The notes beneath the pieces were generated by a model. It ran no database searches. It saw only the letters and a list, made by a program, of their open reading frames with translations, and was not told where the DNA came from. The position numbers and the translations under genes were made by a program. Shown here piece after piece: positions 2,257 to 53,815 of a stretch of DNA of 64,000 nucleotides. The stretch is from a virus: positions 1 to 64,000 of IMG/VR virus record IMGVR_UViG_3300032053_000039, one strand, 5' to 3'. Numbering within the stretch: the stretch's first letter is position 1; the number at the start of each line of letters is the position of its first letter.

Positions 2257-2584
2257 TTTTATCTTTCCTTGCTTATTTATCTATATTTTGGTTTTTCAAT
2301 AGATACGTTAAAATTTATTTTATAAATCTGCTTATGAACTTTATCTGATATCCTTGCAAAGGCAGCATCATTAAACATATCGGATAGATCAAGCTCAGAT
2401 ACATACTCTGTAAGATTTGTTTCTAAAATTAAGGAGGAAAGGTCTTATGCCCATATAAAGAGAAATTTGAATAGATAAATCTTCATCTTTTGTTAATTTT
2501 GACATGTTATATCTCCTTTTTTAGGAAAACATATAACTAATTTGTTATACTACGTCAATAATATTTTTAATAATTATTATTTTT

Positions 2585-2677
2585 TTATTTTCTTCCAGAT
2601 ATTTTTATTTTTATGCCCATACTTATTATAAAACCAACAAACAAACCCAAGACGAATGCAACTAGTATCACCTCCAT
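2585..2677 (-). CDS. small membrane peptide (30 aa)
   Basis: GGAGG RBS then MEVILVAFVLGLFVGFIISMGIKIKISGRK; single hydrophobic helix with basic tail; not in ORF track. Confidence 0.55.
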   Translation of the reverse strand: MEVILVAFVLGLFVGFIISMGIKIKISGRK

Positions 2678-11682: not shown

Positions 11683-11895
11683 TTATACTATTTTTTTATA
11701 CACGTAACGAGTTCTTATATTTTTGCTAAAGAATTTACCGATAGAAGGTGATTGCATAAGTTCTTGATAGATTTCCTCTGGAATGCTTTGAAATTCATAA
11801 ATAGAACCACTATTAAAAGCTATCAAAAGGATATTGTTATCAGGATCGTAACCTATCTTAGATATCGTTGATGATTTGACCGGAATTAGTTCCAT
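11683..11895 (-). CDS. KTSC domain protein
   Basis: PVKSSTISKIGYD...FNSGSIYEF...SPSIGKFF...NIR. Confidence 0.9.
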   Translation of the reverse strand: MELIPVKSSTISKIGYDPDNNILLIAFNSGSIYEFQSIPEEIYQELMQSPSIGKFFSKNIRTRYVYKKIV

Positions 11896-16889: not shown

Positions 16890-19800
16890 ACTTCTTGAAT
16901 ATCTACATCCACCTTAAGTGGCATGGTTACTTTTGGAATATTCTCGGTCATACATTTTACAAATACAGGAGATAACTCCTCTACATACTTATCAGGGCTT
17001 TCTATTAAGATACTATCATGAATAGTTCCTACAAGCATTGTTCTATACTGAGGATTTTTTTCTATCCACTCCTGACATCTTGAAATTCCCATAGCGGTTA
17101 TATCATTAGCAGAGCTTTGAATTTTTGTGTTTGTTGCCTGCCGCAGAGCTTTTCCTTTTTCTATATCATTACTACTAAGTGCTTTTGAAAGATATCTTTT
17201 TCTTCCATAAAGAGTTTCTACATATCCGTACTGCTGAACGAATATTTCGTTATCATGTATAAATTTTTTAACATTTGGATAGGTACTGAAGAATTTATTC
17301 ATAAAGTTAAGCGCAGCTATCTCTGTTATTCCTAAATCTTCTGCAAGAGATCGAGCCTGTAGACCAAAAATTATTCCAAAATTTATTGCTTTCGCTGAAG
17401 ATCTTAATTTCTCATGTTCTGGTTTTTTCTTATCAAAAGAATCAAAAGGTACTCCAAACATTACACATGCAGTATAAGTATGAAAATCATGTCCGGATGC
17501 AAAAGCTTTTATCATACTAGTATCATCAGACATCATTGCAAGAACACGAAGCTCTATCTGTGAATTATGACTTACAAACCCATTTGCTATGTAGCTGTGT
17601 GTTTCTTCTACTTCTATATCATATGTCTCAGCAGGGCTTATTTTTTTTATATTAGATATTTTACAATATACTTGGTTCCATTCTGATATTTTGTGTAATC
17701 CAAGATCTTTATATATTTCAGGGTAGTCTTTTTTTATGAGATCAGAAGTATACTTGGATACAGATCCTTTCCTATTTCTAGTATTTTTTAATAAATTTAT
17801 ATTAGTATACTTTTTTGATTTATTTGTTAAATTAGGATGATTTCCATAAACAGGACTTGCATCAGAACTTTTAAGTATACTTAATAATTTTAATTTTTTT
17901 CTTTTACTAATAAATCCTATTTTTTCATAGAATACTTTAGTCCAATGAGACTTTATATCAAGTATATATACTGTAAATTTATATCCCCGAATTTCATGGT
18001 TTTGTTTTCTCTTTTTAGCTATAATTCCTAAAGATAATAATAATAAATGAACATCGTCTATTAATGATTCCTCAACAGAGGAACATCGAATTCTATCATC
18101 AACAGATCCATCAGTTTCAAAATATCCACGAAGCCAGGAAGATATTAAATCCTCGTTGGATTGAAAAAGAAAAGAAGGAACCCGTTTTTTAGATATACCC
18201 AAATTATTAAATACTTTTATTAAGGGCTTTGAATTAAAATTCATTGCAACAGCACCACGTCTCTCTTTGCATATACTACAAGATTCTCCAAATTGCTTGT
18301 GTAGTATATTCTCTATGTAATTTATAACATCTTTATCTTTAACACAAATGTGCCATTGTATTGTTGTCTTTCGACAATTGCTTTCAAGAGTTGTACCATT
18401 ACCACTAAGGACTCCAAAAAACTCACATAAAGAATTATTTATAAAATTAGGATATTTTTTTAATATTTTATTACTAGCATGTGTATATTCTATTTTTGGC
18501 AAAGGTATCTTGTTTTTATTGTTTAAATGAAAGGGTTGTAATGCTATAAAATCATTTTCAAAATCTAAATTTTTTAAATTTTTCCAAACATAATTTCCAT
18601 GAATATCTATAACACGAATTCTATGAAGATCTGTCATTTTTATTTTATATCCTAGCTCCGTTGTAACCTCATATACTTCCTTAACACCTTGTTTAAAGAC
18701 ATTTAGTACTTTTTTTAGAGATCCATCCTCTTGAATAACTTTTTCATTTTTTTTTAAATATTGTATTTCCTTAAGTCCTGTTTCTGTAGCAACTAGGGTA
18801 TCTCCAACAAGGCATTGGTCCAAGCAAATAAGTTTATTACCTCTTTCAGCACGAACCATATTTCTTATTTTATTATCTCTAGGTATTGTATGAAGAAAGC
18901 AGCTTGCTCTTCCTGTTGCTGTTAACTGATAATAACTCGGGTGTACCCTATGAGTAAGTTTGTCTGCTTTATTCATAAAGCCCACTAAATATGTAGAGTT
19001 CTGTTTTGACAAAGTTCTGTATTCTAATATACTTTTCAATATCGGTTTTTGATTACTAAAGAATGTTATTGCTTCTTCATCTCCTGCAGGATTTCTACCC
19101 TTTTTAGTAACATAGTTTTTATTAGGCTCAAGACCTAAAACATTGTACATTAGGTTACTTATCTCTTTTGAAGAGTTAAGATTTAACTCGTATCCAACTT
19201 TATTAAATATCTTAATTTTTATCTTTTCGATCTCTTCTTTGTTTTGACGAGCTACCTTATCCATATATTTAAAGTCTAATCGTATTCCATTCAGAGTCAT
19301 GTGTATTAAAGAATAGCAGTATTTCATAATAATATTATAAAACACATCTCGATATTCTGAATCTATCTTAGGCTTCATTATCTTATAAAGTCTATAGGTA
19401 ATATCAGAATCCATCGCTGAGTAATATTGCAAAGGAGTAAGATTTAATTCTTTTAACTTTTCTTTTCTTTTAGTTTCTATTTGGGTTCTTAATCCAAGAA
19501 GATACTTATCATATTCTGTAATAACCCCTTTTTCAGAAGATTCAAAATCATCTGGATTCCATAATTGCCCTTGTACTTCTACAGCATCTTCTTTAGCCTG
19601 ATATTTTCCTATTCCTCCGAAAGATGCGAGGATGTCTTTATATCCTCCTTCGTTGGTCATTATCCAGGATAAAGTTTCCAGCTTATAAAGAGAATTTCCA
19701 ACATCTCCTTCCGAACTCATATTTAAAGTATGGTACGCTAACATTGTATCAAACAAAACTCCATTTACTTTGAATCCTAATTGCATAAGAAAACTCAAAT

Positions 19801-20629
19801 CAAAGGAGATATTATGGCCAACTTTTTCATTATTGGAAGTCATACTCTTTCTAAAAAGATCTTCAAATTCGAGGATATTATTCCATTGTATGTGAACGCC
19901 TTGACCAACAGTATGACAAAAAGATATATCAGTTATTTTATCTTCTCTGTGATTAAATCCCCGGGTTTCTAAGTCAAATGCAAAGGAAGGAACTTCTATA
20001 AGTTCTTCAAGATACTTTTTTATATCTACAGGATCTTCTAAAGTTCGAGCATTTGCTTTCATTTTTCTTTGTGGAGGAAGATCTATAATCTGTTTTGCCA
20101 GAATAAGATCATTTACAAAGTGTTGGTATAGTAACCTATCTTGTGTTCTCATTAGATATGCTGGATGATATGTAGGAATAATTACTGTATCTAACTCAGG
20201 AAAATACATTTTTTTACCACGAGCACTTTCAATAGTTAGTCCTATCTTTATGAGTTGCTGAAGAGCTATCTTTCCGATTGTTATTATAACTTTCGGTTTC
20301 ATTTTATTTATGAGTTCTATGGTAAATGCTCTACAACAATCTATTTCTTTTGGAGTAGGAGTTCGATTATTTCCAGACTCGTCTATGGGATGACACCGAA
20401 TTGCATTGCTGATAAAGCAATTTATACCTATCTGATCTAAATAATGTTGAAGCATTTTTCCAGAAGCACCTACAAAGGGCATTCCCGCATCTGCTTCTGC
20501 CTGTCCTAAAGCTTCTCCAAGAAGAAGGACTCCCGAATTAATATCTCCTCTTCCAACAACATGAACACTCTTGGAAGTTCTCCACATGTTACATTTTTGG
20601 CAGAGATAGTTATTTGTAGTATATTCCAT
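16877..20629 (-). CDS. polA: family A DNA polymerase with N-terminal family-4 uracil-DNA glycosylase domain, 3'-5' exonuclease and intein
   Basis: UDG4 motifs CxxC, GEALGQAE, PFVGASG, CHP...NRTP, TYHPAY; exonuclease FDLET, GHNISFD, YSAMD; polymerase DQ|SQIELR, KAINFG, HDS. Confidence 0.93.
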   Translation of the reverse strand: MEYTTNNYLCQKCNMWRTSKSVHVVGRGDINSGVLLLGEALGQAEADAGMPFVGASGKMLQHYLDQIGINCFISNAIRCHPIDESGNNRTPTPKEIDCCRAFTIELINKMKPKVIITIGKIALQQLIKIGLTIESARGKKMYFPELDTVIIPTYHPAYLMRTQDRLLYQHFVNDLILAKQIIDLPPQRKMKANARTLEDPVDIKKYLEELIEVPSFAFDLETRGFNHREDKITDISFCHTVGQGVHIQWNNILEFEDLFRKSMTSNNEKVGHNISFDLSFLMQLGFKVNGVLFDTMLAYHTLNMSSEGDVGNSLYKLETLSWIMTNEGGYKDILASFGGIGKYQAKEDAVEVQGQLWNPDDFESSEKGVITEYDKYLLGLRTQIETKRKEKLKELNLTPLQYYSAMDSDITYRLYKIMKPKIDSEYRDVFYNIIMKYCYSLIHMTLNGIRLDFKYMDKVARQNKEEIEKIKIKIFNKVGYELNLNSSKEISNLMYNVLGLEPNKNYVTKKGRNPAGDEEAITFFSNQKPILKSILEYRTLSKQNSTYLVGFMNKADKLTHRVHPSYYQLTATGRASCFLHTIPRDNKIRNMVRAERGNKLICLDQCLVGDTLVATETGLKEIQYLKKNEKVIQEDGSLKKVLNVFKQGVKEVYEVTTELGYKIKMTDLHRIRVIDIHGNYVWKNLKNLDFENDFIALQPFHLNNKNKIPLPKIEYTHASNKILKKYPNFINNSLCEFFGVLSGNGTTLESNCRKTTIQWHICVKDKDVINYIENILHKQFGESCSICKERRGAVAMNFNSKPLIKVFNNLGISKKRVPSFLFQSNEDLISSWLRGYFETDGSVDDRIRCSSVEESLIDDVHLLLLSLGIIAKKRKQNHEIRGYKFTVYILDIKSHWTKVFYEKIGFISKRKKLKLLSILKSSDASPVYGNHPNLTNKSKKYTNINLLKNTRNRKGSVSKYTSDLIKKDYPEIYKDLGLHKISEWNQVYCKISNIKKISPAETYDIEVEETHSYIANGFVSHNSQIELRVLAMMSDDTSMIKAFASGHDFHTYTACVMFGVPFDSFDKKKPEHEKLRSSAKAINFGIIFGLQARSLAEDLGITEIAALNFMNKFFSTYPNVKKFIHDNEIFVQQYGYVETLYGRKRYLSKALSSNDIEKGKALRQATNTKIQSSANDITAMGISRCQEWIEKNPQYRTMLVGTIHDSILIESPDKYVEELSPVFVKCMTENIPKVTMPLKVDVDIQEVWTK
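17564..18814 (-). mobile_element. LAGLIDADG intein in PolA motif A (417 aa)
   Basis: starts CLVGDTLV, WLRGYFETDG, ends VSHN before Ser. Confidence 0.92.
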
Positions 20630-28925: not shown

Positions 28926-31900
28926 TTATCCGCATTTAGAATACCCACATCCAATATCTGAACATTTGAGACAACCCTCAGAAAATCTTAATTTTGATCC
29001 ACAGGTAGGACAAACTTCTTGAGCATCCAATCCATCCTCTACATATTTTTTGAGTGTTCGAGCGAGGACTTTAGCAAAATGGGTTACATCACCTTCTGCC
29101 TTATTAAGCATTATAAGAACTTCATCCAGAGGAACTCCTGATTGTAAATGCAAAGAGATGGATCGAGCAAAAGCATCATGCTCTTTATTATAAAAGGATT
29201 TCCCTATATTGTTTATAAGAACTTCGTCATCATATTCAAAAGAATAATGTTTTGTTCCTTGCCTTTTAATAAATCCATCTTCTATTTTCTTAGGAATACA
29301 AACATCATCAACTGCTCCAGCAAACATTTCAAATGGTTTACCTTCCATAAGACTTACAAAAACAATCCATTTATGACCTTGATACATAACTCTGTGAATC
29401 TCGCAAGGAAGGGTAGGAGGCCTTTTTGGGATAGCTCTATAGACGATACCCTCTATTTTATCTTTTTTATCAGAATCGTGAATGAGTATTCCTTCTCTAC
29501 ATCCATCCCGATAGACAGTAACTCCAATAATTCCCCTTTTATGAGCATCTAAAAACACACCAGCTACATCTTCCTTAGTAGCATTACTAGGTAAATTAAT
29601 AGTTTTACTTGCTGATAACGAAACATTAACTGCGGTAGCTTCTAAAATGCTTAGGTGTTCCATAGGTGTTAAATCTCCTGCGGTTAAAAATACTTTCTTC
29701 ATATCATCTGGTATATCTTTACATTTCTGGCATGAGCCTTTATTTTCAGAAACCTCCTTAAGTATCTTTTGTTTTATTTTATCATCAAAATTATCAATGA
29801 GATATTTTTCAAATACAGAATCTCCAATACAAACAACATCATATTGTTTTACTCCCTCTTTTATACCAGTTTCTATTTTACGTGAATAAGATAAAGCAAA
29901 GACGGGTTCGATTCCTCCAGATACTTCGGCGATGTATGCAATACTTCCAGTTGGTGCTATAGAAGTGCAGCAACTATTTCTAATTCCGTGTTTTTTAATA
30001 TCACTTCTAAGTTCTTCTATATTAATATTTCTACAGGATTTGTGTTTAAAAAATCTTTCGTTAGCCTTTATAAAAAGATCATAGTCAAACGCTTCATAGG
30101 ATCCTTCTATTTTAGATAATTCTACAGATTCTTGCATAGACCTTAAAGTAAGATAACGAATAACCTCTTCAGTAAATTTAAAAGCTTTATCAGAGTTATA
30201 TGGTATTTCTTTTTTATAGAGAGCATGAGCAAGACCCATAACACCAAGACCAATTGGTCGTGTTTTTAATGTAACTTCTTTTATTTTTTTTATAGGAAAC
30301 TTATTTTTATCAATAGTGCTATTTATAAATCGAGTTGCTTTTACTATTATTTCTTCGAATTCATCCCAATTAAATTTTTTACCTTCAACTAAAGATGATA
30401 AGTTTATAGAACCAAGGGCGCAACTTGTATATGGAATATTGGTAAATTCTGAGCAATTCGAGCATACAACATATTCTATACACTTTTTATTTTTTTTATT
30501 TAAATACTCTCTTCCGCCTATTAAAAAATTGTGTGTTTCCTCAACAGTACCATCGTATACATCTTCTTTACCAATATATTTTATTGATATTATTTTATGA
30601 TTATAAGAATCCCCAATAGCTTTTTTTAATTCAAATTTATGTTTATAATTTTTAATATTTTTTTCTGCTAAATATATTAAATCTTTAGCAAATCTTACTT
30701 TATTTATATTATCTTTCAAATAAGAAAGAGACGGACAAAAAATATTATTATTCCGAATAACAGTTCTTGCTCCTTTATACTCTTTACCGAAATTAAGATA
30801 AGTATTACCAAGTTTTTTATAGGCTCTAAACATCTCTAAAGTTAATTTTAATCTTCTTTTGGTATTTGGATGGTCCAAATACTTTTTTGAAAATTTAGAA
30901 TTTTCAAACATAAAAGGTTTTTGTATTTCTTTAACACAACAATAATGAGAACAAAATGTTATTTGCCTTCTATCATAGTCTACAATGAATTCCTTTCCAC
31001 AATATTCACATTTTTTATATATTATAAAATTTAAAGATTTTTTATCAAATTTAAATATTTGTTCTCCGGACACCAGATTATTATACTGTTTCAAAAGTTT
31101 ATTATATGTTATAGATTCTATATATTTAACTTTAGCAAGATCACAATATTCTTTAGGATTACTATATCTATATTTATTTCCTTTATTATTGGTATTTAAG
31201 AGAGGAAGATTTAAACTCTTCCACATTTGAAGAGTAAAGAAATTGTAAAGAGTATTTTTAGAGTATTTTTTTATTAACCTAACAATTTCTTCATTTGATA
31301 TATTTTTAGAATTACTGTTTTTTAAACCTTGGTTTAATTCTCTTTGTTTTCTAATCCAGGAATCTCTATCTTTAATTTTAAATACTGGATTGTTTTTACC
31401 AAGTTTATCCTTTCCATGTAATTGGTCATGAGTTTTATAATCCATTATTTGTAAATTTTCTGGTCTGTTGTCTAGAGAGTCATAATTAATATGATGAACA
31501 ACTTCTCCCTCAGAAAGTAATTTACCTGAAAAATATGCTGCAATAAGTCTATGTTCTGATTTTGTAATTCCATTGGTGGTAATAGTACAATATTCTTTTT
31601 TCTTAGAAACGGATTTACTATAATTTTTTATTATGGATTTTATACTACTTCCTTTTTTTAAATCTTTTAATGGAACCATAACACCAGAGGTAGTTAAGAA
31701 TTCATGATTATTTGTGCATTTTATAATCAAGCCACTATCAAAAGAAACTTCATAAATATCAGCGTTTTTTTGTGTGAGTCTGGGATTTAAAAATTTCTTA
31801 ATTCTCAAATCTCCTTGTTTATCTAAAGTATATACAGGAACATCTTTTTCTTCATCTACTAGTTGCTTAATAGAAATAGAACCTCTTCCATCTGCGACTG

Positions 31901-34025
31901 CTATGAGAGTATCCCCTGTTATACATGGATTTGAGATTACAGTTTTATTGATATTAGTAACAGTACACTGCCTATAAGCTATATCCATATTAAAAATTCC
32001 TGGTTCTGCGACCGACCAGGCATTTTCTACAATAGCATCCCACAACTGTTTTATTGTTACCATCTCCCCTTCTGAATCTAACAAAGCCATTGTGGCTCCA
32101 TCTGTAACATTTTTTATAGTGTGAGGAATCTCTGGATTTTCTTCCAAGTCTTTATAAAAGCTATCAGGAATCATTACAGAAAAATTAAGTCTATTGAATT
32201 TACTCAAATTCTTTTTTGCTTCTATAAATTCTAGTATAGACGGATGATCTATTGTAAGGAGACCCATCGCAGCACCCCTGCGACTATTGTGAGTAACAAT
32301 CCCATTAGCTATGTAAGAATGAACGTCTTCCACATTTATATCATAGGTTTCATTTTCTCCAGTATCTTCTATTTTTACTACTTTACTAAAAAAGTAATCT
32401 CCAACTTCAGGAATAAGATTAAAAGCAAATTCTTTTTTCTCTTTTAAGTGCTGGTATGAAGATATACTAAAATTTCTTTCATTCCTAAAATATCTTTTTA
32501 TCTCTTTTTTTAGTTTTTTATGACTTTCTGGTTTATAATGATTTTTGTCTATTTCTTCTAAAACTTTAGAAAACCAATACCGAGGAAAGGGAAGAACATA
32601 GCTTTTTTCTCGAGTTAGATCACATTTCCAATTTTTACATTCCATGAAACGTGATTTTTCATCACAGCTTATAATCTTTTTCCAATTTTCTAATCCTACG
32701 TAAGATAGTATTTTTAAACTATGTATAAATTCTTCTTTGCTGAAACAATTTTTCCCATGTTTAGTTAAAAAAATACTATTTGGGCAACCCAGTTCAAATA
32801 AAATAGCAGATACTTCTTTTATGAGAACAAAAGATGATGAGTTTAATTGAGGGTATCCATGACTAACTGAACCATCTGATTCAAAAAGACCTCTTAAATA
32901 CATTCCTTTTATCGAAATAGGACTTTTTCTAATTAATAAAGGAATTGACGCAGTATTACTTTTGCTTTTATTTAATTTATTTAAAATGAGAAATTCCTTT
33001 AATTTTTTATTCGATATAGTGATATTTACACAATCACCTTTCCCTCTTTGAGTATAAAAAGATATATCTCCAAATACTTTTTTCAATTTTTTAGGAAAGT
33101 CTTCTACCAAATAACTTTTGAGGGGAATGGTAAAAACAATTCTATAATCTTTTTCTTTTGATGCTACAGATCCATTTCCTGTAAGATATCCAAGAATAAA
33201 TGCAAAATCTTCTGTTATTTCTTTAGGTAAGCTAATATCATTTTCATTAAAATGATTATATCTAGACTCATCTAATTGTTGTAATTTTTGAATTACTCCA
33301 TTTCCTGATTTTAATTTGATTACAGCAAAGTCTCCTTTTTTAACATCTTGAAGCTCTTTCCAAATGAATCCATTTTCTGAAAATATTTTTATTTTATGAT
33401 TATATGTCCCTTCAAGCTCTATTCCTTCTTCTGTTATAATTTTTAATGTGCTCGCAATACCGTTACAGTAAAATCCTTTAGAGTCTTTAATACCATTTTC
33501 GGTGTCTATTTTTATACTATGATCATGCCAACCATAATCTCTATTGCTTATTATTTCATCTAAATATAATAAGCCTTCTTGAGTAGAGATAAGAGATCTT
33601 CCTATGAGACATCCTGACTGATTAACACCATCAAGCATTTCATTAAATATTGCTATAAAAGGGAGAGGTCCTGAGCTGGTTCTACCATTAAGGGTTTTAA
33701 TTTCTTCTTTTGATCCTCGTAACCTAAAGTATGGAATTCCTATTCCACCTCCCATCTTTGTAACAATAGCACATTCTTTTAATGATTCAAATATTCCCTC
33801 AATACTATCTTCTATATCCATAGGGAAGCACGAACTAAGAGTTCCCACTCTTTCATTAGTCCCTCCGTTCATCAAAGTCGGAGATGAAGGAATAAATTTC
33901 ATTTGTTCTAGGTATGGATAGATATCAGGATATATTTTTGAGATTCGCTTAGCTAATTCCTCCCAGGTATTTTCACTTGATAGAAAATATCTATCTCTAA
34001 GCAATTTTACAATAGATTCATTCAT
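28926..34025 (-). CDS. nrdJ: class II (B12-dependent) ribonucleotide reductase with two inteins
   Basis: PSSPTLMN, LSSCF, QSG|SRRGAAM, NP|CSE, CALGSINL, RPIGLG, IAPTGS, SKTINLP, TVYRDG; C-terminal CPTC...C..C. Confidence 0.93.
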   Translation of the reverse strand: MNESIVKLLRDRYFLSSENTWEELAKRISKIYPDIYPYLEQMKFIPSSPTLMNGGTNERVGTLSSCFPMDIEDSIEGIFESLKECAIVTKMGGGIGIPYFRLRGSKEEIKTLNGRTSSGPLPFIAIFNEMLDGVNQSGCLIGRSLISTQEGLLYLDEIISNRDYGWHDHSIKIDTENGIKDSKGFYCNGIASTLKIITEEGIELEGTYNHKIKIFSENGFIWKELQDVKKGDFAVIKLKSGNGVIQKLQQLDESRYNHFNENDISLPKEITEDFAFILGYLTGNGSVASKEKDYRIVFTIPLKSYLVEDFPKKLKKVFGDISFYTQRGKGDCVNITISNKKLKEFLILNKLNKSKSNTASIPLLIRKSPISIKGMYLRGLFESDGSVSHGYPQLNSSSFVLIKEVSAILFELGCPNSIFLTKHGKNCFSKEEFIHSLKILSYVGLENWKKIISCDEKSRFMECKNWKCDLTREKSYVLPFPRYWFSKVLEEIDKNHYKPESHKKLKKEIKRYFRNERNFSISSYQHLKEKKEFAFNLIPEVGDYFFSKVVKIEDTGENETYDINVEDVHSYIANGIVTHNSRRGAAMGLLTIDHPSILEFIEAKKNLSKFNRLNFSVMIPDSFYKDLEENPEIPHTIKNVTDGATMALLDSEGEMVTIKQLWDAIVENAWSVAEPGIFNMDIAYRQCTVTNINKTVISNPCITGDTLIAVADGRGSISIKQLVDEEKDVPVYTLDKQGDLRIKKFLNPRLTQKNADIYEVSFDSGLIIKCTNNHEFLTTSGVMVPLKDLKKGSSIKSIIKNYSKSVSKKKEYCTITTNGITKSEHRLIAAYFSGKLLSEGEVVHHINYDSLDNRPENLQIMDYKTHDQLHGKDKLGKNNPVFKIKDRDSWIRKQRELNQGLKNSNSKNISNEEIVRLIKKYSKNTLYNFFTLQMWKSLNLPLLNTNNKGNKYRYSNPKEYCDLAKVKYIESITYNKLLKQYNNLVSGEQIFKFDKKSLNFIIYKKCEYCGKEFIVDYDRRQITFCSHYCCVKEIQKPFMFENSKFSKKYLDHPNTKRRLKLTLEMFRAYKKLGNTYLNFGKEYKGARTVIRNNNIFCPSLSYLKDNINKVRFAKDLIYLAEKNIKNYKHKFELKKAIGDSYNHKIISIKYIGKEDVYDGTVEETHNFLIGGREYLNKKNKKCIEYVVCSNCSEFTNIPYTSCALGSINLSSLVEGKKFNWDEFEEIIVKATRFINSTIDKNKFPIKKIKEVTLKTRPIGLGVMGLAHALYKKEIPYNSDKAFKFTEEVIRYLTLRSMQESVELSKIEGSYEAFDYDLFIKANERFFKHKSCRNINIEELRSDIKKHGIRNSCCTSIAPTGSIAYIAEVSGGIEPVFALSYSRKIETGIKEGVKQYDVVCIGDSVFEKYLIDNFDDKIKQKILKEVSENKGSCQKCKDIPDDMKKVFLTAGDLTPMEHLSILEATAVNVSLSASKTINLPSNATKEDVAGVFLDAHKRGIIGVTVYRDGCREGILIHDSDKKDKIEGIVYRAIPKRPPTLPCEIHRVMYQGHKWIVFVSLMEGKPFEMFAGAVDDVCIPKKIEDGFIKRQGTKHYSFEYDDEVLINNIGKSFYNKEHDAFARSISLHLQSGVPLDEVLIMLNKAEGDVTHFAKVLARTLKKYVEDGLDAQEVCPTCGSKLRFSEGCLKCSDIGCGYSKCG
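30456..31925 (-). mobile_element. HNH intein 2 of NrdJ at the catalytic NPCxE (490 aa)
   Basis: starts CITGDTLI, CTNNH, VHHINYDSLDNRPENL, ends VVCSN before Cys. Confidence 0.9.
32286..33611 (-). mobile_element. LAGLIDADG intein 1 of NrdJ (442 aa)
   Basis: starts CLIGRSLI, YLRGLFESDG, ends VTHN before Ser. Confidence 0.92.
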
Positions 34026-46988: not shown

Positions 46989-48107
46989 TTATTTATCCTT
47001 ATTTATCTCTGCATAAGATTCAATACGTTTAATACCACAGCTTATAATCTTTTCTTTATCTAGATCTGTTTTATAATTATTAACATAATCCCTAAATATA
47101 TCATAACTGCTTTTTCTTGTATTTATAAAAATACTGTCAGAACCTGTATTTTCTTTTTTATCTCTCTTTTTAATACTTCCAATAAGGCATTCTCGATCTT
47201 TAAAGAATTTATATATTTCTGTAATATTTAATTTTTCTTCAAATAAATGATCTATAAAAATAACGGATCCTAGTAATATTCTTGATGATTTAAAAAATTC
47301 TAGAGGATCTATTCCATCTGGTACAGAGTATCTTAAAAACTTTCTTATTCCTGGTATTTCTTCAAAGTAAGAATTTCCATCTTTATCTATAAGGCAAAAT
47401 CCTTTTTTAAGTCCTATGTCTGTAGCATCCATATAGGATGTTGATCCAGGGTAGATAACAGATACATTTCCTTTTACATAATTTTGGGCTGTGTGGATAT
47501 GACCTAGAAGAAATAAAAACTTTCTATCTTTAAATACATCTGCATCAAGAAGATAAACTCCCCGAGACAGCATTCGGCTTTCAGATCCTATACGGCTAGA
47601 ATACTCTTGAATATGTGATACGATCATAGTTCTGTCTCTTGCAGAAGAGATGGCCATCTCAAGTTCTTGATTGACAAAGGCATCCTTATCCTTAAGACTT
47701 TTATTTGGGACATACGGTATAAATTTAACATTCCAATCGTACCAATTAAAATTGTGGTTTTCTTCGTAGATAAACTTTATATTTTTAAGTTTCAGTTTAC
47801 TTCCAAAAATCATTCCATGATGGTACATAGAAGTATCATGATTTCCTGTAATAATATATACGGGTTTATTCAAAGAATCCATATTAAAAAGCCATTCTGC
47901 CAAAAATTGAACATTCGGTGGGGTAGGATGGTTTGTATGAGTCATATCTCCACCAAAGATTATAGTATTAATATCATCCTTTTTACCTCTTTCAAATATA
48001 TAATCAAGAGCCTTCATAGCATCAAGTTCTGCTGAATATATTCCGTTAGAGTCCTGAATTGAATGAGATCTTAATCCTAGATGAATATCACTGAAAAAAA
48101 GTATCAT
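46989..48107 (-). CDS. sbcD: SbcD/Mre11/gp47-like nuclease
   Basis: SDIH, GGD, GNHD, GHIH, YPGS. Confidence 0.92.
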   Translation of the reverse strand: MILFFSDIHLGLRSHSIQDSNGIYSAELDAMKALDYIFERGKKDDINTIIFGGDMTHTNHPTPPNVQFLAEWLFNMDSLNKPVYIITGNHDTSMYHHGMIFGSKLKLKNIKFIYEENHNFNWYDWNVKFIPYVPNKSLKDKDAFVNQELEMAISSARDRTMIVSHIQEYSSRIGSESRMLSRGVYLLDADVFKDRKFLFLLGHIHTAQNYVKGNVSVIYPGSTSYMDATDIGLKKGFCLIDKDGNSYFEEIPGIRKFLRYSVPDGIDPLEFFKSSRILLGSVIFIDHLFEEKLNITEIYKFFKDRECLIGSIKKRDKKENTGSDSIFINTRKSSYDIFRDYVNNYKTDLDKEKIISCGIKRIESYAEINKDK

Positions 48108-49132
48108 TTAATTTTCTCCCTTATTTCAAGTTTCTCCAGTATTTCAAGGTTAATTATATCTAATCCCTTAAGTATCCCTGATTTTGAAGAATTAAGAACG
48201 TATCTATGTGATACTTTAATCAAAGATAAGAGGAGCATAGCATAGTAACTAAATAATTTAGAGGTATAATAATCATTTTCTGTGTGAGGATCAAAGTACT
48301 TAAGTTCTTTTTTTACTTCATATTTTATAACTTCTTTTTTAGAAATTCCTAAGGCACGAGCTCTTCTTTCAAGATAGTCCTTACAATAATATTTTTTATG
48401 AGTATATGCTAGATCGTATCCTGATAAAATAATACAACTAGGATCAAGAAGAACCGATATTATAAACATTGCATTTCCGACCCATCCGTTATTTTGGACA
48501 TAAGGGTACTTTCTTGTCTTCCATGTCATTTTCTTTAGTACTAAATTTTTATATCGAATAGTATCTGATTGATTAAAAAATAATATTTTTCCTTTCCAGG
48601 CTTTTAGTGCTTCGGGGTTTAGTGTCGAAGATGCAACTAGTATTAAATCAGAAGTATCTAGATCATGCCAAAAGAATTTAATTAGTATTGATGGATCTAA
48701 AGATACTACAAGATTTGGTTTTATTTTATTTTTTAGACAATTATAAAGAACGGCATCTTGACAGATTATATAAAAATTGTGGGTCATTTTTTTAATAACC
48801 TTTATATCTTTATCAAGAGAAGGTCCATCTGCAAGAAGAATAACTGGTATGTTTCTTGATAATCTTTTCTTTAAGATTTCCAAAGAATCAACCCTTGTTG
48901 TTATTTTAAATATTCCTAATTTTAAATTTTCTGTGTAATTATCTCTCCATGTTTTTATAAAAGGATCTTTCTTTACCAATTCTATTTCTTTGGGTATTGA
49001 TCTTATTTCTTTTATACAGGAATAAATTAATTTTATACATTTTAATAAATAAAAAATAAAATTTATTCCAAACAGCTTAAGATACTTTATAGTTTTTTTG
49101 AAATATCTTTCCAATCTATTAAAGAACCACAT
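48104..49132 (-). CDS. DUF115/Maf (MptE-like) putative glycosyltransferase
   Basis: LADGPSLDKDI, ICQDAV, KPNLVVSLDP, SGYDLAY. Confidence 0.75.
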   Translation of the reverse strand: MWFFNRLERYFKKTIKYLKLFGINFIFYLLKCIKLIYSCIKEIRSIPKEIELVKKDPFIKTWRDNYTENLKLGIFKITTRVDSLEILKKRLSRNIPVILLADGPSLDKDIKVIKKMTHNFYIICQDAVLYNCLKNKIKPNLVVSLDPSILIKFFWHDLDTSDLILVASSTLNPEALKAWKGKILFFNQSDTIRYKNLVLKKMTWKTRKYPYVQNNGWVGNAMFIISVLLDPSCIILSGYDLAYTHKKYYCKDYLERRARALGISKKEVIKYEVKKELKYFDPHTENDYYTSKLFSYYAMLLLSLIKVSHRYVLNSSKSGILKGLDIINLEILEKLEIREKIK

Positions 49133-49593
49133 TTAGAACACTCCATAGTCCAAGCATCAATGATATTACTGCAGCTACATGTATAATCCCAATTTAGATA
49201 TTCTGTACCCATACCCTCTCTAACTTTCTTATATTTCGTAGGTGTAGCTAATTTAATTTCTTTTTTATCGGAAGAAAGACCTGGCTTTTTTATTTGTTTT
49301 AAATTTTCTACAACAGCATTAAAATATTTTAACGAATGCGTTTTAACTAATCCTTTTTCCCAATCTTCTTTAAAATATTTTACACATTCTACAAGTCTAT
49401 CTTTACCTACTTTTTCTACCAACATTGATATATTTGTTATCTTGTCCTGTTTCGTTATTTTTTTCTCTGCACCTTCTCTTTTAAATTTAGTATAATCGAA
49501 AAATGAATTATAAAATCTACAAACAATATCTCCATCTTCCCTTCCAAATGTTTTATGACAAAACTCTCTAAATCCTTCGAATACCTCTCTCAT
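49087..49593 (-). CDS. protein paralogous to the initiator C-terminus (helical domain plus zinc ribbon)
   Basis: SLKYFNAV and YTCSC...CSKCGSLIDW parallel TPKYFLEA and YVCKC...CSVCGTEVDY of the upstream gene. Confidence 0.65.
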   Translation of the reverse strand: MREVFEGFREFCHKTFGREDGDIVCRFYNSFFDYTKFKREGAEKKITKQDKITNISMLVEKVGKDRLVECVKYFKEDWEKGLVKTHSLKYFNAVVENLKQIKKPGLSSDKKEIKLATPTKYKKVREGMGTEYLNWDYTCSCSNIIDAWTMECSKCGSLIDWKDISKKL

Positions 49594-50777
49594 GAATAAA
49601 TCCTCTCACCTTCTTGTGTTACTAAATAGTCTACCTCCGTTCCACACACAGAACAGAATCTTAAATCATCATGAAGTTGTGTTTTATGACCACATTTACA
49701 AACATATACATAATTATCTTCAACAGGTTCTAAATGAGATGTGTCTTCAGGTACATTTCTTAGCAGGGCCTCTAGAAAATACTTAGGGGTTATCTTTCTT
49801 GAACAGATTCCAAGTGCAATGCTTCCTTCGATGGTTTCTATAGCTTCAAGTACTTTACTCAAAGTGAATCTATTTATCCAAGTTTCTAAAGATTCTAATC
49901 GAATAATATTTTTTTCAATTTTAGATTGTTTCCCGTACACCTCTATCCGTTGTAAAATATTAATTATCCTGTTGCTATTCTTAATTAAATCATTATAATA
50001 TATAGGTATACATCCATTGTTTTTATCTATTAAAAATTGAATAAGTCCCGCCGAGGTCAATTCTTTTAAACTTTCCTGAGTCCTTTCTTCTCTTAACTCT
50101 TCTAAGGAGTTCTCTTTCTCCCCCTCTTCTCTTTTAGGAATTCCTAAAGAGTTATCTTCCTGATGTTTTTTTTCTTCCCCAAAAAAAAGATCTGTAGTAA
50201 TCTCTGTAGTATTCTCTGTAGTAATCTTTGTATATGTATTACAGATTTCCGTAGGAGGGTCATACGGATTTCCGTATGAGGGTGGTACAGATTCTCGTAG
50301 GGGGGTGGTACGGATTTTTGTATGACCCCCCTTTTCGATATGATTATAAGTTATTTCAGTTATTCTTTCAACATTAGGTTCTACAAACATTACATTATAG
50401 AGCATTGTGTTTTTTACAAGTACTTGTCTAAATTCTACAGAAATAAGATTTAAACGTACTAATGTCTCAAATGAATCACGGACTTGCCTTTTGCTAGATC
50501 CAGTTAATTCAGCGTAATCACTATAGCTTTTCTGAAGTTTATCAGAATTGAATTTTTTTGATATTGATGCGATATCATCGGTTTGAGGATCTCTTGTGGT
50601 TGTAGGAGTATACCAATATCTAATATTGGCTAGTATATACGCAGCTAAGAAATCAGTAACTTTTTTTCCTTTAGTTGTTGTATATGTAATTGCTTTTAAC
50701 CAAGAAGGAGGTAGAATATCACCGGATATATTTAATTTTCCAATAGCATCTACAGTAGGTGTTGTATTTTTTATCAT
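49590..50777 (-). CDS. phage replication initiator (lambda-O/DnaD-like, winged-HTH N-domain)
   Basis: ILANIRYWY...LQKSYSDYAELTGSSKRQVRDSF HTH; internal iterons; ITTENTT linker; C-terminal zinc ribbon. Confidence 0.75.
   Translation of the reverse strand: MIKNTTPTVDAIGKLNISGDILPPSWLKAITYTTTKGKKVTDFLAAYILANIRYWYTPTTTRDPQTDDIASISKKFNSDKLQKSYSDYAELTGSSKRQVRDSFETLVRLNLISVEFRQVLVKNTMLYNVMFVEPNVERITEITYNHIEKGGHTKIRTTPLRESVPPSYGNPYDPPTEICNTYTKITTENTTEITTDLFFGEEKKHQEDNSLGIPKREEGEKENSLEELREERTQESLKELTSAGLIQFLIDKNNGCIPIYYNDLIKNSNRIINILQRIEVYGKQSKIEKNIIRLESLETWINRFTLSKVLEAIETIEGSIALGICSRKITPKYFLEALLRNVPEDTSHLEPVEDNYVYVCKCGHKTQLHDDLRFCSVCGTEVDYLVTQEGERIYS
50240..50331. repeat. four 23-bp iterons with dyad symmetry, candidate replication origin
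   Basis: units start at 50240, 50263, 50286, 50309; consensus TACRGATTYYYGTAKGR; unit 2 contains the perfect dyad TACGGA-TT-TCCGTA. Confidence 0.8.
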
Positions 50778-50965
50778 GAGTTCCTCTCGAGTTCATATGT
50801 TATATTTTTTATTTTTTCAGGGTTTGGTTTAACAAACATCACATTATAGAGTACTCCTCCTTTAATTTTTATATTTTTAAATTCTAATTTTACAATATCT
50901 AGAGATTCTAACGTATTAAATGATTCTCGAATTTGCTTTTTACTGAAATTTAATAATGAGGACAG
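50774..50965 (-). pseudogene. start-less fragment paralogous to the initiator wHTH
   Basis: LSSLLNFSKKQIRESFNTL...VLYNVMFVKPNPEKIKNITY vs Rep YAELTGSSKRQVRDSFETL...MLYNVMFVEPNVERITEITY; its TGA overlaps the Rep ATG. Confidence 0.7.
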
Positions 50966-50967
50966 GA

Positions 50968-51070
50968 TAAAATAAAAAACCTCCAGAAAGTACCACCTGT
51001 TTCCAGGTTCTGCTCGGTATTTCTGAAGGTTGAGGGCTATTACACCCTTAGATATGAGCAGAAAAACCTA
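50968..51070 (-). ncRNA. structured leader/attenuator RNA upstream of the initiator
   Basis: long stem with G-U pair, ACCUG-GAAA-CAGGU hairpin, AGGGU/GCCCU hairpin, UUCUGCUC/GAGCAGAA complement and U-tract. Confidence 0.6.
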
Positions 51071-51420
51071 AGAGTACAATAACGATATTACAAATTGTGA
51101 AATTTTATGTTTCTTATTCTTAAATACTAAAATAAGAGCTGTTTCGTCGGAATATTATAGATAGAGCGGTTTTAATTTTGGGTTCGATTCTGTTTTAGTC
51201 ATTATTTAATCTAATATGGTTCATCTATCTATGTTTTATATAGCAGGACGCTATTTTATAATAAATATCTGTCAATAGAATTTTTTTAAGTCCCCTGAAA
51301 AATATTCAGGAATGAACTTAAACTTACCTTTTCAGGTTAAAATTTTAATCAAATTTCATATAATTATATTAAACGCAATTATACATTTAATCAACATTTA
51401 ATAAATACGAGGTTCTTATC

Positions 51421-52389
51421 ATGGCAGAAGTAGTGAAAATAAATTCTAAAAAGGGTCTGGTTTCACTTACCCAGAAAGATATAGCCGAAAACGACTTGGC
51501 TTCCTGGTTGAGAACAAACTCTAAAGGTTTCGGTCATTATTCTTTTATTAATCAACAACCCTTTGAAAGGGTAGCAGCAAAACTTTTTGTGGATAAATAT
51601 CCTTCTACACATGTGAAGATAGCAGAAAGTATTGTATGTACAAAAGAAGGAGGTGTTGATGTATTTCTTAAAATCACAGATGATCAATCTCGAGGATTTT
51701 ATAACACTCATCCCACAAAGCTTGTATTCAATAAAGGAAAACAAACCGTTATTGATGATATCACAAAACATGGATCAGAAGAAGGAGTTTTGGATGTTAT
51801 AGAGGATGATGACTTGAAAGAAGACTTCGAAGATAATTCTTCTGATTATGAAGAATCTGCGGATGAGGAATTCTATGGTGAGATTGAAAATTTTCTTAGT
51901 GAAATAAAAAGTCTTTCTGAAGAAGATCTTATTAAAAAAGTATCTCCAGAAGAACTTGAAGAGATAAGTAAAATGTTAGATCTTGATAATAAATCAGAAT
52001 ACGAAGAAGACGAAGATTCTGAAAAGGAAGATTTGAAGGATGAAGATTTGGATGATATAGATATTGATTTAGAAGAAGAGGGAGACGAGAAAGAAGATGA
52101 AGAGGAAGAAGACGATTATGAGTATGAGGACGAAGAGGAGATTGGTGAGGATGAAAACGAGAAGGAAGATGATGATAATGACAACAATGATATCGAATTT
52201 GAGGAAGGCTTTATCGAATCTAAAGGGGATGATGGGATTCTTAAAGAAGTTAATCTCGAGGATTTCTCTGAAGATAAAGGGCCTGAAATAATTGAGATAG
52301 AAGGAAAGATTCCAGAAGAAAAAGGATCAATCGAAAAAGTTCCCTCTGATAAAATTCTCAGAGATTTAATAAAAGAAATTTTGGGGTAA
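51421..52389 (+). CDS. highly acidic protein
   Basis: C-terminal two-thirds dominated by D/E. Confidence 0.8.
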   Translation: MAEVVKINSKKGLVSLTQKDIAENDLASWLRTNSKGFGHYSFINQQPFERVAAKLFVDKYPSTHVKIAESIVCTKEGGVDVFLKITDDQSRGFYNTHPTKLVFNKGKQTVIDDITKHGSEEGVLDVIEDDDLKEDFEDNSSDYEESADEEFYGEIENFLSEIKSLSEEDLIKKVSPEELEEISKMLDLDNKSEYEEDEDSEKEDLKDEDLDDIDIDLEEEGDEKEDEEEEDDYEYEDEEEIGEDENEKEDDDNDNNDIEFEEGFIESKGDDGILKEVNLEDFSEDKGPEIIEIEGKIPEEKGSIEKVPSDKILRDLIKEILG

Positions 52390-52393
52390 TATT

Positions 52394-53815
52394 ATGAATT
52401 CTAGGAATGTATTTTCTGAAGTGCAGAATTATTTTAATGATAATGGATTTTTATCGTATTTTCTTGATTTTGTTGAAGGTTCCTTTCCTAAAGCTTTGAG
52501 TTCTTTTAATACAGCTTTTCCTGATATGGGTTCTGAATCAAATATAAAAGCAGGGTTAACTTTATTCTACTATCTTTATTTTAAATCCCCTGAAGTTTTA
52601 AATAAATTACTGGATTTGGATCCAGCCGAGTTTGAAAAAAGAAAAGAATATTACAATAAGCACTATGGAAGATATTTTAATTATTTTAATAGAGAGTATG
52701 GTTCTACTTTAAATCACTCAATATTTTCTAAAATAAAAAAGATTTTAGCAACATTGAGAAATCATTGGGAAAAAAAAGTTAAAGGAGCTAGTTCTAAATA
52801 TACAGACACATCTTCCCTTGAAGAAAAAGAAAATAGATTAAATATGGAACAAGAACTCGGAGCTAATGCCTACAGAGAGTTTTTTTCTAGTTCATTACTT
52901 CCTGTAAATAAAAAAGAAGAGACTGATGAATACTTTGAAGATCAATTGGGAAATAGTCTTAATATAGGGGATGCTTTTTATATTCCTAAAATAAAATATG
53001 CTAACTTAGAGTATATAAAGAAGACTGCGATATTTGATAAATTCTTTAAACAAGATGATCCTAAAAAAACAGTAGAAGAATTATCAGAAGATGCTGCTGA
53101 GCGAGGTCGTCAGGTTTGGGAAGGATATGAATTTCCAAATCAAGAACAAAAAAGTCAGAAAGAAACCCCTAAGGCTGTGGAACCTACAAAGGATTTAAAA
53201 ATTCCTTATCCTTCTCCTTCCTCTAAAAAAGAAGAACCTGAGGATGCAGAAAAGAAAAAATACTTAGAAACTCAGAGTAAAGAACAAGATTATTTAAAAC
53301 ACAATGTTTTTAAAATAATTAAAAAATTTATGAGAAGAGATCCTTTTGGGGATGAGATTGTCTCTTGGGTAGAAGGTATTAATTTTGATCCAGAAACAGG
53401 AAAGGAAAACTACTCTTATAAAATGAAAATTCCTACTTATCTTGTTTCTTCCTACAAAGCAGAATTTCCAACAGAGAAAAAAGATAATAAAAAAATGGAA
53501 GAAAAACCAAGATACCTTATTCCTCCGAGATCTGCTTCTGAAGACATTGACGAAGAAATTTTTATTCATGAAGCTATCTATGCAGCTCTTCTTAATATTA
53601 AAGAGGCTGCAGAAGGAGAATTAACACCATCACAAGCTGTTAGTGAAGGTAAGAAAGAATTTTACGATACTAAGAAAGATAAAAAAGTAATTGTTACTCC
53701 TCAAAGTGGTGTTATTACAGTAACTCCTGAAGGGAGTGGACCGGAAGAGGAAGATGTTTATAAGTCGGATAGTATTGACGCAATAGAAAAAGAAGGGATA
53801 AAACCAATTATTTGA
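52394..53815 (+). CDS. hypothetical protein, probably virion-associated
   Basis: 473 aa in the plus-strand block with the portal gene. Confidence 0.75.
   Translation: MNSRNVFSEVQNYFNDNGFLSYFLDFVEGSFPKALSSFNTAFPDMGSESNIKAGLTLFYYLYFKSPEVLNKLLDLDPAEFEKRKEYYNKHYGRYFNYFNREYGSTLNHSIFSKIKKILATLRNHWEKKVKGASSKYTDTSSLEEKENRLNMEQELGANAYREFFSSSLLPVNKKEETDEYFEDQLGNSLNIGDAFYIPKIKYANLEYIKKTAIFDKFFKQDDPKKTVEELSEDAAERGRQVWEGYEFPNQEQKSQKETPKAVEPTKDLKIPYPSPSSKKEEPEDAEKKKYLETQSKEQDYLKHNVFKIIKKFMRRDPFGDEIVSWVEGINFDPETGKENYSYKMKIPTYLVSSYKAEFPTEKKDNKKMEEKPRYLIPPRSASEDIDEEIFIHEAIYAALLNIKEAAEGELTPSQAVSEGKKEFYDTKKDKKVIVTPQSGVITVTPEGSGPEEEDVYKSDSIDAIEKEGIKPII

Follow-up and report, generated by a model that had tools for sequence, protein, structure and literature searches.

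The window analysed here covers positions 1-64,000 of a 77,435-bp IMG/VR virus record (IMGVR_UViG_3300032053_000039) from a large, uncultured phage. By CheckV the record is ~32% complete, and its G+C content is ~30%. At 49.1-51.3 kb, where two gene arms diverge, lies a minus-strand segment comprising a gene for a replication initiator (rep), an array of DNA repeats inside that gene, a smaller gene (ORF168) overlapping its end, the remnant of a rep-like gene immediately upstream, and a leader with two RNA hairpins. The features of rep and of the repeat array are as follows.

49590-50777, minus strand: rep, encoding a 395-residue replication initiator (supported by PHROG profiles, homology and AlphaFold2)
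50334-50777, minus strand: winged-helix N-domain of Rep, residues 1-148 (AlphaFold2)
50091-50329, minus strand: disordered linker of Rep, residues ~150-229 (AlphaFold2)
Residues ~225-340 of Rep, minus strand: helical C-domain (AlphaFold2)
49623-49715, minus strand: CxC...CxxC zinc ribbon of Rep, residues 355-385 (a less confident beta-ribbon in the model)
50240-50322, minus strand: four putative origin iterons, with dyads starting at 50322, 50299, 50276 and 50253 (Tandem Repeats Finder and comparison with relatives)
50190-50225, minus strand: three 12-mers of the form A(A/T)TACTACAGA(G/T), directly after the iterons; a candidate element for unwinding, binding of single-stranded DNA or helicase entry
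50166-50188, minus strand: T8-GGGGAAG-A8 tract that flanks the 12-mers (read from the sequence)

Profile searches with Rep revealed matches to PHROG 270, "replication initiation protein" (residues 5-198, E = 2.3e-10), and to PHROG 678, "replication initiation O-like" (N-terminal part, E = 4.8e-6). In tblastn searches, the initiators of Bacillus phage Athena and of Acinetobacter Obolenskvirus phages shared 35-36% identity with residues 1-176, and profile comparison aligned residues 6-197, linker included, with "DnaD domain" proteins of Bacillus cereus-group prophages at a probability of 100%. These phage homologs are annotated as "replication initiation protein" or "DnaD domain", and in Acinetobacter phage IME-AB2, Athena and two further loci (L006 and L007) the initiator gene adjoins a gene for a DnaB-like helicase or an IstB-like loader. 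Pfam yielded sub-threshold zinc-ribbon matches at the C-terminus of Rep and nothing else: there was no match to Phage_rep_O (PF04492) in Pfam-A at E <= 0.1, none to Rep_3 or RepA_N, and none to the DnaD/DnaB_2 C-terminal domain (PF07261) in either Rep or ORF168. A search of the PDB by sequence gave no match.

An AlphaFold2 model of Rep, made with 78 aligned homologs, shows a single winged-helix domain. The predicted local distance difference test score (pLDDT) was >90 for residues 1-145, which form an alpha/beta winged helix of the initiator-like kind that had been anticipated, <50 for residues 151-229 and ~83 for residues ~225-340; the low-scoring linker coincides exactly with the DNA repeats. 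Structure searches returned winged-helix folds with a best Z of 7.8, and the Foldseek matches were weak and generically winged-helix. A RepA_N-type initiator (4pta, Z 7.2 over 98 residues) and a DnaD N-domain (8ojj, Z 6.4) were tied with transcription regulators. With only generic winged-helix matches of this kind, the fold class of Rep is clear and its specific structural relative is not. We are nevertheless confident that Rep is an initiator-type winged-helix protein whose N-domain belongs with the PHROG 270/678 families.

Tandem Repeats Finder detected two periods in the part of rep that encodes the linker, one of 23 bp (3.4 copies, 50240-50317) and one of 12 bp (3.5 copies, 50191-50232), which, with the PHROG assignments, upholds the original prediction of a full initiator with internal iterons. 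On the rep strand, the four dyads read TACAAAAATCCGTA, TACGAGAATCTGTA, TACGGAAATCCGTA and TACGGAAATCTGTA at an exact 23-bp spacing. They follow the pattern TAC(A/G)-N6-(C/T)GTA (TAC-N8-GTA), are separated by CCACCC-type spacers and make up the most GC-rich island of the region. The 12-mers ATTACTACAGAG, AATACTACAGAG and ATTACTACAGAT come next, followed by T8-GGGGAAG-A8. Because 23 is not a multiple of three, each iteron unit is translated in another frame. Within the 77-kb record, the repeat motifs are confined to rep.

When 5 kb of the region served as a blastn query, the IME-AB2 rep gene matched at ~80% nucleotide identity, exactly over the array. In the alignment the spacers, dyad ends and 12-mers are identical and the dyad interiors differ, and Tandem Repeats Finder reports the same two periods in the IME-AB2 gene. 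An identity of ~80% at the DNA level, set against 35% at the protein level, indicates that selection acts on the DNA, as would be expected of an origin. The idea that the origin is internal to the initiator gene, as in lambda O, is thus supported by an array that lies in the linker and is conserved as DNA.

Two relatives of the window were compared in detail, a metagenome contig (L008) whose Rep is 85% identical and a second locus (L009) whose Rep is 51% identical. Arrays in relatives contain 3-7 units, and the letters of the half-sites are lineage-specific: TACAAAAwTCTGTA in L008, seven units of TACrGAATTCrGTA in L009, TACGTTnnAACGTA in Bacillus-type phages and TAGGAAAAATCCGA-like units in Clostridiales genomes. 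Comparable A/T tracts follow the 12-mers in L008, L009 and IME-AB2. In L007, an IMG/VR locus, the frame homologous to Rep (2187-2669, minus strand) stops after 160 residues, within the iteron array, and the 12-mers lie downstream of the stop; this may reflect a frameshift, a split gene or a sequencing error.

The 12-mers are nearly identical in initiator genes of Acinetobacter, Bacillus, Clostridiales, Staphylococcus, Klebsiella and Stx phages. A query of 75 nucleotides (nt), consisting of the 12-mers and the last iteron, matched 115 phage records in GenBank and 42 plasmid records, and the matches nearly always fell in genes annotated as replication protein O, DnaD-like or primosomal. The phages and hosts concerned include Acinetobacter, Bacillus, Klebsiella, Staphylococcus, Geobacillus and Stx-converting phages, covering Proteobacteria and Firmicutes. 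Lineage-specific iterons followed by the same 12-mers, mid-gene, were found in all three of the matched phage loci that were looked at (L013-L015). The consensus of the array is A(A/T)TACTACA(G/A)AG, and the design of 23-bp iterons plus TACTACAGAG 12-mers recurs in the initiator genes of hundreds of phages from different phyla. Among the matches listed, the exact double-12-mer pattern was present in >120 IMG/VR contigs; in 104 distinct IMG/VR loci among those listed, the motif lies at 0.49-0.52 of the open reading frame (ORF), the median ORF being 309 residues. The 120 nt upstream of the 12-mers showed a 23-bp period at 88 of 100 loci, the self-match being 0.56 there and 0.32 in a control stretch. 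Only 13 of 120 motif-bearing ORFs among the matches listed fit the hidden Markov model (HMM) of the window's Rep N-domain.

Codon use within the 12-mers was counted solely in repeat units that the search pattern had not fixed. The units are frozen on ACT-ACA-GAG, the second Thr codon being ACA in 13 of 13 cases and the Glu codon GAG in nine and GAA in none, as against 23% ACA among Thr codons and 54% GAA among Glu codons elsewhere in the same ORFs. Such frozen codon choice suggests a DNA-level element, and the comparison across loci indicates conservation of the 12-mers at the DNA level among several diverged initiator families. In plasmids, the 13-mers of the unwinding element are bound as single strands by Rep proteins (PMC4081077), and by analogy the 12-mers may be read as an opening or helicase-entry site. 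A full-text literature search for the 12-mer strings and the TTE peptide returned nothing relevant, although the motif may still have been described. The origin of pABTJ2 (PMC4411360) is that of a Rep_3 plasmid and is unrelated.

Two side observations concern the wider distribution of the 12-mers. In the O protein of the Stx2a-converting phage Stx2_14040 (L013, 742-1635), the N-half and the C-half resemble different sets of phages, and the changeover falls at residues ~150-185, in the iteron/12-mer linker. The origin itself thus appears to be where initiator modules are exchanged, and the 12-mers are a possible recombination boundary for such shuffling. The 12-mer array also occurs twice in Bacillus velezensis/amyloliquefaciens plasmids of ~8.4 kb, in stretches with no PLSDB-listed gene.

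The gene that follows rep encodes a protein related to the C-terminal part of Rep.

49087-49593, minus strand: ORF168, a stand-alone paralog of the C-terminal module of Rep (helical part and zinc ribbon; hhalign)

The start of ORF168 overlaps the rep stop as ATGA, and its position is conserved in L008 and L009. Pairwise BLAST and a shallow profile related ORF168 to Rep over the zinc ribbon only. With a deeper alignment, hhalign matched ORF168 residues 43-164 to Rep residues 285-385 (probability 95.7%, E = 9.7e-9), in keeping with the earlier impression of an overlapping gene that repeats the C-terminal architecture of Rep. Rep was also matched, at E = 1.3e-4, by a plain HMM built from the ORF168 family. 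An exhaustive profile search extended the family to 73 members, ~45 of which stand alone (160-200 residues) and ~20 of which form the C-terminal domain of proteins of 430-630 residues. Of ten fused proteins tested, nine begin with phage initiator domains, which come from several PHROG families. One family member (P0005) is a Rep-ORF168 fusion, a relative of Rep whose C-terminus aligns with the whole of ORF168. This recurrence as the C-terminal domain of phage initiators places the ORF168 family in replication initiation.

No Pfam family covers ORF168, its PHROG matches are weak and of unknown function, and its matches in the ESM Atlas are confined to unnamed viral clusters. The family is unrelated to the DnaD-type C-domains of the Bacillus homologs (hhalign probability 0.6%). 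A model of ORF168 had a pLDDT of 78 and found no convincing neighbour by VIA-align, the best Z of 5.7 being to unrelated helical proteins; the DnaD domains 2i5u and 2zc2, at Z 4.1-4.3, were within the noise. A predicted complex of Rep 225-395 with ORF168 scored 0.00, which is evidence neither for nor against an interaction. As judged from the profile comparisons, ORF168 and the Rep C-terminus are genuine paralogs, and ORF168 is part of the replication module.

A second paralog, of the N-domain, precedes rep.

50774-50968, minus strand: pseudogene remnant of a stand-alone Rep N-domain paralog ("Rep-N prime"), last ~64 codons (homology and relatives)

When the phage's own genome was searched with Rep, a second match was obtained at 50762-50968 on the minus strand, covering Rep residues 87-156 with 43% identity (E = 1.4e-14). 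A start-less paralog of the Rep winged helix, with a TGA overlapping the rep ATG as ATGA, is therefore present as had been described. The frame is open from 51067, and its only in-frame starts are GTG and ATG codons 22-23 codons before the stop. At the same place L008 has an intact ORF of 137 residues, with its own Shine-Dalgarno sequence and ATG, that encodes a full-length Rep N-domain paralog; in the alignment, the window lacks ~244 bp corresponding to the Shine-Dalgarno sequence, the ATG and the first ~76-80 codons. Two more intact paralogs (P0153 and P0154), each of 143 residues, share 74% identity with the L008 protein. They agree with the remnant at nearly every residue and end in the same ...KNITYELER extension, which shows that the stop abutting rep is ancestral and that the 5' part alone was lost. 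A derivation of the TGA/ATG overlap from a TAA-to-GAA mutation within a pseudogene was rejected, the extended end of P0153 and P0154 being the intact ancestral form.

The truncated junction is gap-free in contigs from other sediment runs, which argues against an assembly artefact, and on comparison with its relatives the Rep fragment is a 5'-truncated pseudogene. The more distant relative L009 has no N-domain paralog gene. The idea that the fragment serves as a coupled leader of rep is accordingly not sustained: it is what is left of a 137-143-residue gene that relatives either keep intact or, in L009, do not have. The paralog retains the helix and wing of the fold (LYNVMFxEPN) and is without the family's nearly invariant YWYxPTxxRD stretch. 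By analogy with shortened Rep proteins, the intact form in relatives is a candidate competitor or autoregulator at the iterons.

Upstream of the remnant lie the leader hairpins and the promoter region.

51270-51290, minus strand: promoter-like block of the leftward rep operon, with an A-tract and TTGACA (51270-51275), conserved between the window and L009
51036-51083, minus strand: leader hairpin H1, whose 18-bp stem includes five G-U pairs and closes a 12-nt loop
50967-51031, minus strand: leader hairpin H2 (50978-51031) and U-tract (50967-50979), intrinsic-terminator-like

The minus strand of 51083-50967 folds into H1 and H2, the latter a long stem with an inner hairpin, followed by UUUUUUAUUUU. 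The minimum free energy was -42.9 kcal/mol (z = -5.16), and none of 200 shuffles folded as well, which bears out the presence of a structured minus-strand RNA ending in a U-tract. The opposite strand was not significant (z = -1.28). Taken singly, H1 gave z = -5.63 on the minus strand versus -1.08 on the plus strand, and H2 gave z = -5.48. A terminator scan finds the H2 stem and U-run, and H2, with a G+C-rich stem directly before the run, has the predicted form of an intrinsic terminator. No Rfam family was matched on either strand of 48000-53000 (E <= 1).

The leader element of L008, situated just before the intact paralog gene, is nearly identical, with the same stem and U-run and four substitutions, two of which turn G-U into A-U pairs. 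L009 carries an 18-bp hairpin at the equivalent place (5816-5862, z = -6.04), then a longer hairpin with an H2-like base, and has no U-run after the H2-equivalent stem. In a sequence-only MAFFT alignment of H1 with L009, all 18 pairs are kept, four by two-sided and six by one-sided changes; only four of 500 shuffles reached the observed values, and slid controls paired 36-50% of cells. In searches of the window and of seven loci, a covariance model built from the window and L008 detected no additional copy of the RNA, and it did not pick up L009. The internal loop of H2 (GAGCAGAA, 51008-51015) is complementary over 8 nt to the loop of H1 (UUCUGCUC, 51056-51063), a match reached by 174 of 20000 shuffled loops (0.9%); the complement is reduced to 7 nt plus a U-G pair in L008 and was not seen in L009.

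A consensus promoter scan returned 11 promoter-like sites as compared with 13.4 expected, no more than in shuffles. The TTGACA block suggests a leader of ~460 nt, with a putative -10 box and transcription start. The divergent intergenic block 51270-51371 (TTTAACCT...AAAAAAATTnTATTGACA) aligns well with L009 5580-5700 and probably holds shared control sites of both early promoters. We take the structure of the leader RNA to be real, and the strand-specific folding and pair conservation suggest that H1 is probably functional; action of the leader as an attenuator of rep is a hypothesis. What the relatives preserve of the features proposed in the window is thus the iterons, in L008, L009 and IME-AB2, and H1, in L008 and L009; the U-tract is kept in L008 and absent in L009.

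The strand switch proposed for this locus is clear from the ORFs: all long ORFs are on the minus strand below 50777 and on the plus strand from 51421, so that the module sits between diverging arms. Genes for SbcD, SbcC and an MptE-like protein lie in the minus-strand arm, below 50.8 kb, as do those for a primase, a DNA polymerase, two helicases, one of them DnaB-like, and a ribonucleotide reductase with an intein; the plus-strand arm starts at 51.4 kb and leads to a portal gene. The MptE-like/DUF115 gene (PF01973, E = 1.4e-29; 48104-49132, minus strand) directly follows ORF168 with a 46-nt overlap, and the order rep, ORF168, MptE-like gene is kept in L009, where the last lies at 7829-8776. 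Several minus-strand genes are oversized: those for the DnaB-like helicase (3949-6489), a second helicase (7433-9718), the primase (11858-13972), the DNA polymerase (16877-20629) and the ribonucleotide reductase (28926-34025). Internal matches to HNH endonucleases or to "terminase" PHROG families within the oversized replication genes suggest several inteins. The first rightward gene (51421-52389, plus strand; L009 4640-5533) encodes a protein with ~125 well-conserved N-terminal residues and a long, acidic, D/E-rich tail, for which no family match was obtained. Its low-complexity DNA accounts for spurious blastn matches to Erwinia and Xanthomonas jumbo phages.

The phage is at least 77 kb in size, and an identical Rep protein occurs on a record from a 127,857-bp contig. 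Near-identical DNA was present in at least 10 sediment metagenome runs; among the runs listed, there was no RNA run with the region. Searches of viral contigs with Rep alone and with an alignment found no relative, and genome contigs gave two distant Clostridiales matches only, at 35% identity.

Together, these results make it probable that 49.1-51.3 kb is a phage origin-plus-initiator module that heads the leftward replication operon of SbcCD, polymerase, primase and helicases. There is nothing unusual in the initiator-and-origin core, which follows a very common phage design, and the same type of initiator and origin is common in ordinary temperate and lytic phages. In the mechanism that we propose, dimers of Rep would bind the dyad iterons and build an O-some-like complex, and the 12-mers with the A/T tracts would provide the site of duplex opening and helicase entry. 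The Rep C-domain and its free paralog ORF168, translationally coupled to rep, would recruit the phage's DnaB-like helicase and primase, and replication would be bidirectional and co-oriented with the two diverging gene arms. The N-domain paralog would have been lost in this phage without harm and kept in relatives. The leader hairpins would constitute the 5' untranslated region (UTR) of the rep operon, in which H2 and the U-tract would probably lower or gate read-through into rep in this lineage.

Several points weigh against this interpretation. The array was assigned as the origin by sequence comparison, and the cumulative GC skew of the whole record, although its minimum falls at 50-51 kb as an origin there would have it, is confounded, since the minimum is inseparable from gene orientation at the strand switch. 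The duplex-stability profile (40 bp) shows only a shallow dip near the repeats, -42 to -44 versus a mean of -46 kcal/mol, and no clear A/T-rich unwinding element beside them. The role suggested for the 12-mers draws on their conservation and on the analogy with plasmid 13-mers, and that suggested for ORF168 and the Rep C-domain on their position in initiators, so that the helicase and primase are candidate partners. The covariation in H1 comes from two independent lineages and is supportive rather than conclusive, and the lack of a U-tract in L009 implies that termination may not be a conserved function of the leader.

The original prediction favoured plasmid-like, RNA-gated initiation from iterons, and in its fullest form this would mean that the leader RNA or attenuator, with the coupled upstream frame, sets the level of Rep in an episomal phage-plasmid. 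The leader is indeed strongly structured and strand-specific, with a terminator-like hairpin at its end, H1 shows both conservation and covariation, and the 8-nt loop complement could act as a switch or pseudoknot. Moreover, the paralog gene of relatives ends at or just before the rep ATG (the ends of P0153 and P0154, and the L008 DNA), which implies that coupling of an upstream frame to rep is ancestral, and in the window a short frame of 22-23 codons with GTG and ATG starts still ends on the rep ATG. That upstream frame is, however, a start-less truncated gene that has no counterpart in L009, and what it encodes in relatives is a predicted DNA-binding protein of 137-143 residues rather than a leader peptide. 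Promoter-like matches at the level of shuffles give no sign of a countertranscript promoter, the 77-kb record has no iterons outside rep that could serve in handcuffing, L009 lacks the U-tract, and ordinary lytic and temperate phages use the same type of initiator and origin. Copy control by antisense RNA or an attenuator with a coupled leader peptide, of the R1 tap/repA or ColIb-P9 repY/repZ type, is for these reasons not borne out, and we regard the plasmid-like scheme as unlikely: the iterons within the initiator gene stand, whereas RNA gating, plasmid-like control and an episomal lifestyle find no support in these analyses.

A smaller departure would leave the module unchanged and see in the hairpins an ordinary, mRNA-stabilising feature of the 5'-UTR, or the terminus of a small, independent RNA transcribed from the divergent promoter region. 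We give this a modest chance. It fits the absence of an Rfam family and of a second copy under the covariance model, the reduction of the element in L009 to H1 and the base of H2 without a U-tract, and the loop complement, which is absent in L009 and only moderately unlikely by chance. It is less easily squared with the retention of all 18 pairs in H1, 10 of them changed, across lineages with Rep proteins of 51% identity, which argues for selection on the structure, or with the expectation that a strong hairpin and U-run between a promoter and the first gene would affect downstream expression. Far less probable is a view in which the repeats are no more than low-complexity coding sequence of the linker, or a recombination "boundary" for module shuffling, with the origin somewhere in the two thirds of the genome that the record does not cover. 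The low completeness of the record leaves room for this, and the N- and C-halves of related initiators do match different phages with a break at the linker, where 12-mers could promote module exchange. But the 23-bp units are read in three different frames, which excludes selection at the peptide level, the dyad symmetry and two-turn period fit binding sites for a dimer, and the codons of the 12-mers are frozen. In addition, the experimentally mapped origins of lambda, in the middle of gene O (PMC7466680), and of SPP1, where gp38 binds the oriL repeats within gene 38 (PMC6316719), are at the same place in initiator genes.

If this assignment is correct, a large phage with its own polymerase, primase and helicases would start replication by a lambda-O-like initiator of the small-phage type and not in the style of T4 or T7. 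The ORF168 family, with no Pfam entry, gains a context in replication initiation, and mid-gene 23-bp iterons with TACTACAGAG 12-mers become usable as a DNA signature for phage origins. The question raised is what binds the invariant 12-mers while the iterons vary by lineage. The upstream remnant illustrates that an apparent regulatory "fragment" can be a decaying gene, revealed only by comparison with relatives. Particular to this phage are the duplication of an unnamed C-terminal module as a free gene, the decayed N-domain paralog and the conserved leader hairpin. A bolder reading, which we offer tentatively and hold to be rather doubtful as a whole, would join three novelties: the 12-mers as a pan-phage origin element, ORF168/Rep-C as a new recruiting domain and H1 as a new cis-regulatory RNA. 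Shared by diverged winged-helix families with different iterons and C-domains, the 12-mers would then be a common unwinding or helicase-entry signal that may be undescribed; ORF168/Rep-C, acting alone or fused, would recruit helicase or primase; and the leader hairpin would control synthesis of the initiator.

The closest known arrangement is that of lambda O and the O proteins of Stx phages, with which Rep shares a predicted layout of N-terminal origin-binding domain, flexible linker and C-terminal recruitment domain. In lambda, too, dyad iterons lie in the middle of the initiator gene, there with an A/T-rich stretch after them (PMC7466680), and the number of iterons varies among relatives, from four to seven for the window's type and from four to six in lambda and Stx phages. 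The window differs from lambda in the sequence of the iterons and in the conserved 12-mer triplet after them. Rep has no Phage_rep_O match, and its C-domain is an unnamed helical and zinc-ribbon module with a free paralog downstream. No P-like loader lies beside rep, and the phage carries its own polymerase, primase and helicases. For SPP1 gp38/oriL, too, direct-repeat binding sites lie within the gene of the origin-binding protein, there with an unwinding element after them (PMC6316719), and the replisome-organizer gene likewise heads the replication genes. The likeness to gp38 is one of arrangement, and SPP1 differs in having a second origin, oriR, in its dedicated loader gp39 and in its use of host polymerases.

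By sequence, the nearest counterparts are the PHROG 270/678 initiators, namely Obolenskvirus gp51 (IME-AB2), the Bacillus cereus-group "DnaD domain" proteins and Athena gp14, whose N-domains are 35-40% identical to that of Rep and whose genes contain the same origin array, CCACCC spacers and 12-mers included. Their C-domains, by contrast, are DnaD-like (PF07261) or of other kinds and unrelated to that of the window, and they come from phages of 37-45 kb that lean on host replisomes. IME-AB2, Athena, L006 and L007 also differ in having no genes for N- or C-domain paralogs beside rep.

Iteron plasmids such as RK2 (TrfA) and F (RepE) resemble the window in that iterons are followed by a short array of 12-13-mers; in such plasmids all of the 13-mer repeats are needed for origin function (PMC4081077). 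Their Rep proteins have two winged helices and their origins lie outside rep, whereas the window's Rep has one winged helix and the origin would lie inside the gene. Plasmid pIGRK is reported to encode two in-frame Rep proteins with antagonistic functions (PMC6854812), a precedent for a shorter Rep-derived protein that counters the full initiator, the role proposed here for the N-domain paralog of relatives. The two cases differ in that the short form at the present locus is a separate, diverged upstream gene, which in this phage has become a pseudogene.

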